Translations under genes and position numbers: made by a program
Notes under the pieces: model-generated
Seen by the model: only the letters and a program-made list of their open reading frames with translations
Databases searched by the model: none
What the model was told of the DNA's origin: nothing
Virus record (IMG/VR): IMGVR_UViG_3300029305_004297
Source: a virus
Reading direction: 5' to 3' (one strand)
DNA: 20,374 nucleotides
Part shown: piece after piece, positions 7,091-7,516 of the stretch
How the letters are laid out: every line of letters starts with the position of its first letter
Position numbering within the stretch: position 1 is the first letter of the stretch

Positions 7091-7516
7091 ATGACTATTA
7101 CTACTGTACAGAAGGATCTATTCACTATGGCTCAGGGCTACTATCTAGCCCACTGTATCAGCGCAGACTTCGCTCTTGGCGCTGGCATTGCAAAGACTTT
7201 TGACACTGTTTACAACATGAGATTTAAGCTATTTAGAAGCTATCCTGATTATGAATACAATTGTGGTGATGCAATTCTAATTGATAATGTATTTAATCTT
7301 GTTACTAAGAGAAAGTGCTGGCATAAGCCCACCTACGAATCTCTGAGAGAGGCACTTGAGATGATGAAGGAACAGCTAGATTTTCTAGGTGCCACTAAGC
7401 TGGCTATGCCCCGTATTGGTTGTGGCCTAGACAAGCTTTCTTGGGACCAGGTTTATGACATTATCTGCGAAGTGTTTGAAGATATGGACGTTGACATTGT
7501 GATTTGTGAGATTTAA
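7091..7516 (+). CDS. TARG1/OARD1-type macrodomain protein (putative ADP-ribosyl hydrolase)
   Basis: 141 aa. DLFTMAQGYYLAHCISADFALGAGIAKTF...KRKCWHKPTYESLREALEMMKEQL...KLAMPRIGCGLDKLSWDQV is collinear with human TARG1 (GDLF..LAHCISEDCRMGAGIAVLF...HKPTYENLQKSLEAM...LSMPRIGCGLDRLQWENV). RBS AAAGGAG is present. Confidence 0.8.
   Translation: MTITTVQKDLFTMAQGYYLAHCISADFALGAGIAKTFDTVYNMRFKLFRSYPDYEYNCGDAILIDNVFNLVTKRKCWHKPTYESLREALEMMKEQLDFLGATKLAMPRIGCGLDKLSWDQVYDIICEVFEDMDVDIVICEI

Follow-up and report, generated by a model that had tools for sequence, protein, structure and literature searches.

The question raised by this locus is whether a small macrodomain gene at positions 7091-7516 serves its phage on its own or together with the PARP gene that follows it. 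An earlier note on the DNA had proposed the former, namely a counter-defence against DarT-type toxins that ADP-ribosylate DNA, with a function independent of the neighbouring PARP. The stretch analysed, hereafter the window, comprises 20,374 nucleotides and comes from an uncultured gut or rumen phage. A nucleotide search with the locus against 50,697 phage records returned no match, which indicates a phage without a close cultured relative. The features around the gene are as follows.

5203..5240, + strand: intrinsic terminator-like hairpin with a 14-bp stem and a T-run (scan and sequence), closing the upstream unit after the MVP-like gene.
5253..5281, + strand: sigma-70-type promoter, TTGACA-17-TATAAT, a perfect consensus with 12/12 matches and the best site in 5000-10300.
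5309..7057, + strand: RecJ-like ssDNA exonuclease with DHH, DHHA1 and RecJ_OB domains (PHROG 2484, E=3e-152), the first gene of the operon.
7077..7083, + strand: RBS AAGGAGA, read from the sequence, 7 nt 5' of the macrodomain ATG.
7091..7516, + strand: TARG1-type macrodomain, single domain, 141 aa, with K73, D114 and the loops G30-A-G-I-A34 and G112-L-D114.
7519..7524, + strand: RBS GGAGGA for PARP, read in the 15 nt that separate the macrodomain stop codon (7514-7516) from the PARP ATG (7532).
7532..8752, + strand: phage PARP of 406 aa, with a WGR-like N-terminus (weak match), a helical middle and a PARP catalytic domain (PF00644, E=4e-23; PHROG 23333, E=8e-65).
8766..9317, + strand: 183-aa protein of no significant family, in the RecJ-macrodomain-PARP transcription unit.
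9349..9795, + strand: YqeY-like (GatB_YqeY) protein (PF09424, E=5e-18), in the same transcription unit.

The open reading frame at 7091-7516 (+), which runs from an ATG start to a TAA stop, is a real conserved gene. Its product has 2667 homologues among database proteins at E<=1e-5, the top match being 94% identical; contigs carrying these matches reach about 173 kb, and the family comprises 1482 clusters at E<=1e-10 (50% clustering level). According to phmmer searches against the PDB, the protein is closest to human TARG1/OARD1 (4J5R/2EEE; E=3e-26, 95 bits, residues 3-138), with an identity of 40-42% over the whole length, and DarG macrodomains form the next class (E=3e-3 for Thermus and 0.07 for M. 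tuberculosis). With the Pfam Macro model (PF01661) the protein scores 20.9 bits, slightly short of the cut-off of 22. Pfam annotation is also inconsistent among genuine OARD1 orthologues, several having none at all, and a few close phage relatives do have PF01661. A profile search for diverse homologues recovered mainly the window's own clade. Since the annotation is patchy even on OARD1 orthologues, this generic model appears weak for the branch.

The AlphaFold model of the macrodomain reaches a pLDDT of 94, computed from an alignment that included more diverged relatives and TARG1 orthologues, which biases the model toward a TARG1-like outcome. A preceding model, whose shallow alignment was restricted to sequences of 79% identity or more, had a pLDDT of 61, with residues 22-78 below 50, and was left unused. 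For the three-layer alpha/beta/alpha fold of the model, with TARG1 orthologues in its alignment, TARG1 is the nearest structure. The top 8 Foldseek matches all belong to human TARG1 (TM 0.84-0.92, about 40% identity), and comparison with 4J5Q/4J5R gives TM 0.89-0.92 and rmsd 1.3-1.9 A; the values for DarG are TM 0.85-0.88 with 21-23% identity. As for the active site, K73 (in 'LVTK') aligns with TARG1 K84, and D114 (in 'GCGLD') with TARG1 D125 (in G-L-D). Among 65 distinct sequences of the window's type (type A), K73 is found in 65/65 and D114 in 63/65, with E in 2/65, and the G-A-G-I-A loop is invariant save four I-to-V changes. Judging from these residues, the protein is a TARG1-family ADP-ribosyl hydrolase and apparently active. 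The assignment to a TARG1/DarG-type macrodomain made in the earlier note is thus confirmed in fold, TARG1 subtype and K73/D114 dyad by phmmer, model and alignment, and the description as free-standing is true of the protein.

The gene lies in an operon between RecJ and PARP. The promoter at 5253..5281 is the likely start of this transcription unit, and the scan reported no terminator-like site on the + strand from 5240 to 10300. RecJ probably begins at TTG 5309 and not at GTG 5213, the start given in the mechanical ORF list; the TTG has an RBS (AAAGGAG at 5292-5298) and yields a protein of 582 aa, the same length as the orthologue in locus L008. As for the genes after PARP, the 183-aa protein has no tblastn match in related loci and is not conserved beside PARP. 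In Klebsiella phage FBKp34 a YqeY gene likewise lies 3' of PARP. The placement of the macrodomain among replication genes, also asserted in the earlier note, agrees with the presence of RecJ, PARP, an NAD-dependent ligase, a Dda helicase and DnaE around it. Two tRNA-repair genes, PNK/HD (255-1151) and a Thg1-like gene (1114-2007), are located 5-7 kb upstream. An MVP (major-vault-protein)-like gene (2801-5188) lies 2.3 kb upstream, and a similar gene is seen near PARP in LR756500 and L167. On a more speculative note, this protein might partner PARP by analogy with MVP and vPARP in eukaryotic vaults.

The adjacency of macrodomain and PARP extends across genomes. At 64/64 IMG/VR loci in which macrodomain identity reaches 52% or more, PARP follows immediately 3' on the same strand, and reverse retrieval by PARP finds the macrodomain immediately 5' in 79/80 loci; these counts come largely from related phages, and the loci are not independent events. 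In total, 87 distinct macrodomain-PARP protein pairs were collected, reaching about 55% PARP identity. The gap between the two genes is at most 60 nt in 71/87 pairs and 700-1000 nt in 15, and in the eight long-gap loci examined it is filled by GIY-YIG or other homing-endonuclease-like ORFs. Around the pair the flanks are reshuffled, with RecJ, LigA, DnaE and PNK shifting position or absent. In locus L097, identity to the window amounts to 95% for PARP, 94% for DnaE, 72% for the macrodomain and 38% for RecJ, a mosaic showing that recombination has taken place around the pair without separation of its members. More diverged macrodomains (type B, 26-40% identity) occupy the position upstream of PARPs that retain 55-60% identity. 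Their presence in the same place 5' of PARP indicates that the slot itself is conserved; the catalytic K is kept in 22/22 type B sequences, and D is replaced by G or N. For type A, macrodomain and PARP pairwise identities correlate with r=0.77, a value that partly reflects shared phage ancestry. This co-divergence and the linkage seen from both sides contradict the claim of a function independent of the neighbouring PARP.

Adjacency is near-obligate in diverged phages and recurs in some bacteria. The macrodomain-PARP pair is also present in an isolate contig of Ruminococcus sp. YE282, in Lacrimispora and in an Absconditabacterales MAG. Lacrimispora amygdalina (L200) has the order macrodomain, PARP, ADP-ribosylglycohydrolase (ARH), and Paenibacillus amylolyticus has NrtR, NADAR, PARG, macrodomain. 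Neighbours of the sampled cellular homologues are PARG, NADAR, ARH, PARP and DUF1963, and no DarT lies beside these homologues in the sample scanned. These surroundings in cellular genomes suggest a link with poly(ADP-ribose) metabolism.

The PARP of the window retains its H-Y-E triad as H273, Y307 and E387 (counted from ATG 7532). Across the set of 87 sequences, H is found in every one, and E in each of the 85 that have a residue at this column, the remaining 2 being gapped. Because the triad is invariant, PARP looks active, as far as its residues tell. No fusion protein of macrodomain and PARP, which would constitute a Rosetta-stone link, occurs among the locus ORFs or the long representatives. 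According to Pfam and a custom HMM, no macrodomain is adjacent to distant phage PARPs, the search covering gp030 of Cellulophaga phi4:1, the neighbours in LR756500, XacN1, and gp110 and gp112 of FBKp34; only gp105 of FBKp34, 2.4 kb upstream, proved to be a macrodomain, and it belongs to a different type. Locus L158 carries two tandem PARPs and no macrodomain.

Macrodomains also occur away from PARP, and the linkage is therefore near-obligate, not obligate. Five loci (L182, L185, L186, L187, and L188) have macrodomains 53-61% identical and no PARP within 6 kb. L182, L185, and L188 are close relatives that lost PARP and kept the macrodomain, and L188 shares the backbone of L181 but lacks PARP and three small genes. 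In addition, 16 IMG/VR loci have a macrodomain without PARP, TARG1-like macrodomains without a nearby PARP are found in phages LP65, Fnu1, and Bacillus phage G, and free-standing TARG1-like genes form a large sister clade that is common among PARP-less phages. A third macrodomain type (type C) is present in L097 and L024, and the contig of L172 (L081) holds an additional free TARG1-like copy. Since PARP-less relatives retain the macrodomain, a second role is possible.

Among known proteins, human TARG1/OARD1 (C6orf130) and FmTARG1 of Fusobacterium mortiferum are likewise single-domain, with about 140-150 aa, and share the Lys/Asp dyad and the ADP-ribose-binding loops. Human TARG1 acts downstream of PARP1, and the window macrodomain adjoins a PARP gene. 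Unlike both of these proteins, it is encoded by a phage and transcribed with its PARP; the FmTARG1 gene belongs to an immunity-protein-like cluster in a genome without PARP (PMC6397177). Human and Fusobacterium TARG1 take mono-ADP-ribose off automodified PARP1 and release poly(ADP-ribose) from PARylated protein, the human enzyme removing the whole chain en bloc (PMC6397177, PMC8120803). Bacterial PARP+PARG systems, as in Herpetosiphon aurantiacus and Clostridioides difficile CD160, combine a WGR+PARP writer (H-Y-E) with an eraser of macrodomain fold (PMC8120803, PMC5966428, PMC4245714). Their PARG cuts within the chain, whereas the TARG1-type eraser considered here would cut the acceptor-proximal bond, and the macrodomain and PARP genes differ from the bacterial ones in being tightly adjacent and phage-borne. 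Neither a PARG nor an ARH gene was seen in the window; Lacrimispora L200 adds ARH to the pair.

Based on this evidence, the macrodomain is rather probably the eraser in a two-gene phage cassette that writes and erases ADP-ribosylation, within a replication and repair module. Since it lies nearly always directly 5' of PARP, the role of an eraser partner is likelier than that of a stand-alone weapon against DarT. RecJ, the macrodomain and PARP would be transcribed from one strong promoter, and PARP would be activated through its WGR domain wherever replicating or injected DNA is nicked or broken. PARP would then consume NAD+ and ADP-ribosylate itself and other targets, the acceptors presumably being Asp/Glu side chains, as in PARPs without HPF1, and perhaps DNA ends, as for PARP1-3. 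The macrodomain would cut the acceptor-proximal ribose bond via K73/D114, as TARG1 does via K84/D125, and strip either mono-ADP-ribose or entire chains, which would make the modification transient and recycle PARP. As for the substrates, the timing and the benefit of this cycle to the phage, these we infer. A side activity on DarT-modified DNA is compatible with the role of an eraser and is unnecessary to explain the data.

It is unlikely that the cycle of PARP and macrodomain acts on the DNA itself, that is, on nicks, ends or thymidines of replicating phage DNA, and not on proteins. PARP would in that case mark or cap lesions or ends, for instance shielding them from host nucleases or stalling their processing, and the macrodomain would uncap the DNA for RecJ and LigA. 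If true, the phage would possess an equivalent of the DNA-ADP-ribose axis that was recently reported for PARP1/TARG1 at human telomeres, and resistance to DarT-type DNA ADP-ribosylation would be built in as a side effect.

Acting against DarT is a plausible task for a phage macrodomain, and the idea is no longer new since the phage macrodomain AdfM has been published. As the main job of the window protein, however, AdfM-like and PARP-independent removal of DarT2-type thymidine-ADP-ribose (or of other host-inflicted nucleic-acid ADP-ribosylation) from phage ssDNA is improbable. AdfM, a single-domain macrodomain of PhiKZ-like phages, neutralises DarTG2, and its mechanism is the counter-defence envisaged in the earlier note (PMC13309987); the NADAR-type AdfN is an analogous precedent against DarTG1 (PMC11825919). 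TARG1-type enzymes and DarG are the hydrolases shown to reverse the thymidine-linked ADP-ribose left by DarT (PMC8501950, PMC12879935). The catalytic K is invariant in PARP-linked macrodomains, the gene sits in a replication module where early expression is probable, it was retained where PARP was lost (L188, L182, and L185), and PARP-less phages commonly carry free-standing relatives. The PADLOC DarG model also matches significantly (E=4.5e-13), the window macrodomain covering its positions 27-142/329. In contrast, PARP adjacency is near-universal in the lineage of the window macrodomain, which is much nearer to TARG1 than to DarG or AdfM. AdfM (PhiKZ gp104 and its chimallivirus homologues) comes likewise from the TARG1/DarG branch and has its catalytic Lys aligned, but its nearest relative is DarG2 and not TARG1. 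Pairwise, PhiKZ gp104 and the window macrodomain share 25% identity (35 bits, E=1e-7), and gp104, the outgroup, is the most distant sequence in the distance tree; in the alignments made here, the Asp is not matched between its G-C-A-N-G-G-L-D and the G-C-G-L-D of the window macrodomain. AdfM is imported into the phage nucleus, and gp104 has no annotated PARP gene within 40 kb. DarG of DarTG2 shares the branch and the conserved catalytic Lys, but it is a two-domain protein of about 330-350 aa with a C-terminal DarT-binding domain that the window protein lacks, and the NCBIfam DarG model (NF048014), of which positions 71-146/338 are covered, gives 38 bits against a cut-off of 250. PADLOC found no DarT among the four proteins scanned, the neighbours of the window macrodomain are RecJ and PARP, and the sampled cellular homologues lack a DarT neighbour as well. 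Furthermore, other macrodomains could do the anti-DarT job, such as type C in L097/L024 or the free copy on the L172 (L081) contig. Of the counter-defence interpretation, the fold, subtype, dyad and published precedent stand, and independence from PARP does not. Capture of an orphan DarG from a DarTG locus was considered separately and rejected, since the protein resembles TARG1-like proteins from Clostridia, from Paenibacillus and from phages of these bacteria far more than it resembles DarG.

PARP could alternatively be a phage weapon, acting by NAD+ depletion, by ADP-ribosylation of host protein or DNA, or in toxin-antitoxin-like superinfection exclusion, with the macrodomain as an antidote that protects phage components, or the cell until the right moment. 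The order of a small hydrolase followed at tight spacing by an ADP-ribosyltransferase does resemble type II/IV toxin-antitoxin pairs, with DarTG, sirtuin-Macro and ART-ARG pairs in phages as published analogues (PMC9503650). The cassette travels as a unit between genomic backgrounds, and an antidote would suit the asymmetry between macrodomains, often found without PARP, and PARPs, which lack a macrodomain in only 1/80 near relatives. This reading is nevertheless quite unlikely: the WGR domain is typical of repair PARPs activated by DNA breaks and not of constitutive toxins, the cassette belongs to a replication/repair operon behind RecJ, distant phage PARPs have no adjacent macrodomain, and L158 has two PARPs and none. 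It is very unlikely that the macrodomain handles soluble derivatives of ADP-ribose in place of ADP-ribose attached to macromolecules; such derivatives could be O-acetyl-ADP-ribose, the ADP-ribose-1''-phosphate that arises in Tpt1-type tRNA repair, or immune signals made from ADP-ribose. TARG1 and FmTARG1 efficiently deacylate O-acyl-ADP-ribose (PMC6397177), the ADP-ribose-1''-phosphate phosphatase Poa1p is a structural neighbour (TM about 0.8), the PNK/HD and Thg1-like genes lie upstream, PHROG 335 is annotated as 'phosphatase', and degradation of ADP-ribose signals has been proposed for jumbo-phage macrodomains (PMC7824862). The conserved neighbour, however, is PARP, whereas RNA-repair genes vary in position or are absent; the window showed neither a Tpt1/KptA nor a sirtuin gene, and the TARG1 Lys/Asp dyad that is kept here acts on ester and N-glycosidic linkages in macromolecules. 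A main role as ADP-ribose-1''-phosphate phosphatase for the upstream tRNA-repair genes was rejected, those genes not being conserved neighbours.

Phage PARPs have been catalogued and never characterised, and the literature searched treats them mainly as host-modifying ADP-ribosyltransferases; a conserved two-gene cassette of TARG1-type macrodomain and PARP is not described there. For the defence field, the locus is a caution that a phage macrodomain is not always an orphan antitoxin. Better AdfM-like candidates are the free-standing TARG1-like genes and the type C macrodomain that occurs in the same phages. If the eraser role of the macrodomain is true, phages of roughly 130-175 kb whose presumed hosts are gut and rumen Clostridia, and which form a large and abundant group, would carry a complete minimal writer/eraser system in a replication/repair operon, with an eraser 40% identical to the neurodegeneration-linked human TARG1. 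Such phages would make the PARP-TARG1 axis tractable in a prokaryotic setting and would hint at how these genes arose and spread among viruses, bacteria and eukaryotes; they would also provide a means to ask what poly- and mono-ADP-ribosylation does for a replicating phage genome.

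The macrodomain gene is genuine and abundant. The reading frame that the earlier note had placed at 7091-7516 on the plus strand is exact (141 aa, ATG start, TAA stop), and 2667 database proteins match it at E<=1e-5 (best identity 94%, contigs of up to ~173 kb). A library with 50%-identity clustering yields 1482 matching clusters at E<=1e-10, nearly all consisting of single-domain proteins of 140-160 aa. The assignment to the TARG1/DarG branch holds as well, with TARG1 the best match by sequence and by fold and DarG behind it. A PDB sequence search gives human TARG1/OARD1 (E=3e-26, residues 3-138), followed by the much weaker DarG macrodomains of Thermus aquaticus (E=3e-3) and M. 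tuberculosis (0.07). The initial structure model, built on a shallow alignment, proved poor and was set aside; the second, from an alignment with diverged relatives and TARG1 orthologues, has a pLDDT of 94. With this model, Foldseek ranks human TARG1 at the top (TM 0.89-0.92, ~40% identity) and DarG of Thermus and Mycobacterium second (TM 0.85-0.88, 21-23% identity). K73 (LVTK) and D114 (GCGLD) align to the catalytic K84 and D125 of TARG1, and the protein has the G-A-G-I-A phosphate loop. With 20.9 bits it stays just below the threshold (22) of the generic Pfam Macro model, and the PADLOC DarG model matches through its macrodomain part only (E=4.5e-13). Together, the PDB, Foldseek, catalytic-residue and DarG-model results therefore make the window protein a TARG1-type member of the branch, and the gene a new addition to a known family. 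Identity with DarG itself is ruled out, TARG1 being far closer and the NCBIfam DarG equivalog giving 38 bits where its cut-off is 250.

The window is a portion of a phage genome for which no close cultured relative was found; its relatives are uncultured phages of ~130-175 kb. The hosts are likely Clostridia: the nearest DnaE belongs to a [Clostridium] innocuum phage (47% identity), and cassette matches in genome collections come from Ruminococcus sp. YE282 isolate contigs and from MAGs labelled Clostridium, Clostridia and Aminipila. The window genes are, in order, PNK/HD, Thg1-like (RNA repair), a cell-wall hydrolase, a major-vault-protein-like (MVP-like) gene, RecJ, the macrodomain, a WGR+PARP protein, a gene of no assigned family, YqeY, a bactofilin-like ORF, HNH/EndoVII-like, NAD-dependent ligase, Dda-like helicase, DnaE and ThyX. 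RecJ, the ligase, the helicase and DnaE bear out the earlier description of the gene as lying among replication genes. The features used here are as follows.

255-1151, plus strand: PNK-like P-loop kinase fused to an HD phosphohydrolase
1114-2007, plus strand: Thg1-like 3'-5' nucleotidyltransferase, overlapping the PNK/HD gene
5203-5240, plus strand: strong terminator (signal scan)
5253-5281, plus strand: promoter, perfect sigma-70 consensus TTGACA-17-TATAAT (signal scan)
5309, plus strand: in-frame TTG following the RecJ ribosome-binding site AAAGGAG (sequence reading)
7077-7083, plus strand: ribosome-binding site AAGGAGA, 5' of the macrodomain ATG (sequence reading)
7532, plus strand: PARP start ATG, 15 nt past the macrodomain stop, with its own ribosome-binding site GGAGGA

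The terminator, the promoter and AAAGGAG (5203-5311) all fall inside the mechanically called RecJ frame. The true RecJ start is probably TTG 5309 rather than GTG 5213; the resulting 582 aa equal the length of the orthologue in the related locus L008. RecJ, the macrodomain, PARP and the genes after them form one predicted transcription unit, because the signal scan finds no further terminator between the 5253-5281 promoter and 10300. The H-Y-E triad of PARP is intact and invariant among homologues.

Several neighbours deserve separate mention. The PNK/HD and Thg1-like genes look like an RNA/tRNA repair pair, near which L008 carries a gene of the PHA02142 family (matched weakly in Pfam; perhaps an RNA ligase) and a protein of the isochorismatase family. 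The YqeY-like gene (GatB_YqeY, 9349-9795, plus strand) lies two genes downstream of PARP, as it likewise does in the unrelated Klebsiella phage FBKp34 (locus L096, 7767-8174); YqeY-like genes are also near PARP in L008, L097, L098 and L108, and the two may be functionally associated. The frame at 9792-10139 (plus strand) encodes 115 aa, repetitive and rich in Gly, Cys and Val; the bactofilin match falls below threshold (E=2e-4), and the stop codon overlaps no known feature. The 795-aa MVP-like protein (2801-5188, plus strand) has Pfam MVP_shoulder (4e-23), vault repeats and SPFH/Band_7, and homologues occur in only 3 of 50,697 phage records, all huge uncultured phages. Its gene ends 2.3 kb upstream of PARP in the window; an MVP-like gene lies ~1.8 kb from PARP in L167 and ~6 kb from PARP in LR756500, one of the three phages. 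In the other PARP-retrieved loci none occurs within 8 kb of PARP. Eukaryotic vaults join MVP with a PARP (PARP4), and the recurrence is therefore curious.

Linkage between macrodomain and PARP was examined in both directions. An alignment of TARG1-like phage macrodomains retrieved 80 IMG/VR loci, and PARP lies directly downstream on the same strand in all 64 whose macrodomain is >=52% identical to the window's; the other 16 (46-54%) have no PARP within 8 kb. Conversely, a PARP alignment retrieved 80 IMG/VR loci (PARPs 55-95% identical), 79 of them with a macrodomain ORF directly upstream, the lone exception being L158, with two tandem PARPs and no macrodomain. Both counts speak against the earlier proposal that the macrodomain works independently of PARP. 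Of the 87 distinct macro-PARP protein pairs, 71 are separated by no more than 60 nt and 15 by 700-1000 nt; in the 8 wide-gap loci examined, a GIY-YIG or other homing-endonuclease-like ORF makes up the extra DNA, a selfish insertion and not a separation of the pair. Flanks vary widely, with RecJ, LigA, DnaE and PNK shifted or absent. In L097, PARP and DnaE are 94-95% identical to those of the window, the macrodomain 72% and RecJ 38%; the region has therefore been reshuffled by recombination with the macrodomain-PARP adjacency unbroken. For type A, the macrodomain kind found in the window, pairwise macrodomain and PARP identities correlate at r=0.77, which partly reflects shared phage ancestry.

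As for the spacer ORFs, homing-endonuclease-like frames of at least two types (GIY-YIG, Cys-rich; ~175-295 aa) sit precisely between macrodomain and PARP in L019, L023, L029-L037, L050, L054, L070, L072, L078 and L183. In L051 (7437-8438), L055 (7434-8438) and L181 (5713-6438), the macrodomain frame stays open on its upstream side, through a segment that is P-loop kinase-like or has ~100 aa of no assigned family; each is either a genuine fusion or two neighbouring genes that share a frame.

Strong as it is, the coupling is not obligate. In L182, L185, L186, L187 and L188, no PARP lies within 6 kb of a macrodomain 53-61% identical to the window's; L188 shares its backbone with L181, minus PARP and three small genes, and keeps the macrodomain. 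TARG1-like genes that stand alone are common among phages lacking PARP, such as LP65, LpeD, Fnu1, phage G and LC76P1. Given these relatives and free-standing genes, the macrodomain family has uses beyond PARP. No macrodomain was detected beside the distant PARPs of Cellulophaga phi4:1, LR756500 and XacN1, and no macro-PARP fusion among locus ORFs and long representatives.

The slot upstream of PARP holds two lineages. Type A keeps both the catalytic Lys and Asp, whereas the much more diverged type B (26-40% identity) keeps Lys, has Asp replaced by G or N and a changed G-A-G-I-A loop, which hints at a different mechanism or at binding without catalysis. Type B is the ORF directly upstream of PARP in L121-L129, L149, L153, L159, L164, L167-L173, L175 and L176. 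The distance tree groups the PARP-linked type A sequences in a single clade, whose sister is a large one of free-standing TARG1-like genes, with human TARG1, LP65 orf36, Fnu1 and phage G gp437 among them. Type C is a second, seemingly unrelated kind of macrodomain (HQxNCQGVMGSG, lacking Lys where TARG1 has its catalytic one). Close relatives of the window phage encode it a few kb from the macro-PARP pair, as in L097 (4420-4929), L024 (6082-6555), L025, L026 and L100-L102; it also occurs in L091 (13427-13888) and L096 (3046-3561), in FBKp34 2.4 kb upstream of PARP. These type C genes may be better anti-defence candidates. One contig combines type B adjoining PARP (L172) with a free TARG1-like copy ~25 kb off (L081). 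As extra macrodomains occur in several relatives, counter-defence in these phages has candidates besides the PARP-adjacent copy.

Cellular loci from genome collections independently support a link to poly(ADP-ribose) metabolism. The orders are TARG1-like macrodomain-PARP-ADP-ribosylglycohydrolase (ARH) in Lacrimispora amygdalina (L200 6001-9035), NrtR-NADAR-PARG-macrodomain (TARG1-like) in Paenibacillus amylolyticus (L255 3232-6423) and NADAR-macrodomain-DUF1963 in Paenibacillus massiliensis; no DarT adjoins the sampled cellular homologues.

Published phage anti-DarTG factors include AdfA and AdfB. AdfN, a further one, is a NADAR enzyme (PMC11825919), and since 2026 nucleus-forming phages have been known to carry AdfM, a single-domain macrodomain resembling DarG2 (PMC13309987); the concept of the earlier note is therefore already established elsewhere. 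TARG1 and DarG both reverse DarT's thymidine-linked DNA ADP-ribosylation (PMC8501950, PMC12879935), and a primary anti-DarT role without PARP is biochemically possible and has the AdfM precedent and the PARP-less relatives in its favour. However, the PARP linkage and the affinity to TARG1 rather than DarG make it unlikely, and identity between the window protein and PhiKZ AdfM is only 25%. A secondary anti-DarT activity is conceivable.

TARG1 removes Glu/Asp-linked mono-ADP-ribose and deacylates O-acyl-ADP-ribose, the human enzyme can strip whole PAR chains from PARP1, and that of Fusobacterium de-MARylates and de-PARylates modified protein (PMC6397177, PMC8120803). For the functions of the cassette, all of which we infer, the most economical and rather likely explanation makes the macrodomain the eraser in a writer/eraser cassette whose writer is the phage PARP. 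Expressed together with RecJ and close to LigA, Dda and DnaE, the cassette would thus probably act on ADP-ribosylation set off by nicks or breaks in DNA during infection. An antidote or toxin-antitoxin-like version of the pairing, a close variant of the eraser reading, is distinctly unlikely, and small-molecule processing, ranked last, very improbable. Phage PARPs and viral TARG1-like genes have been noted in surveys, whose relevant passages view phage PARPs mainly as host-modifying enzymes and do not describe a TARG1-type/PARP cassette (PMC4245714, PMC7824862, PMC9503650). As a writer/eraser pair, the conserved phage cassette would be a new version of known writer/eraser systems.
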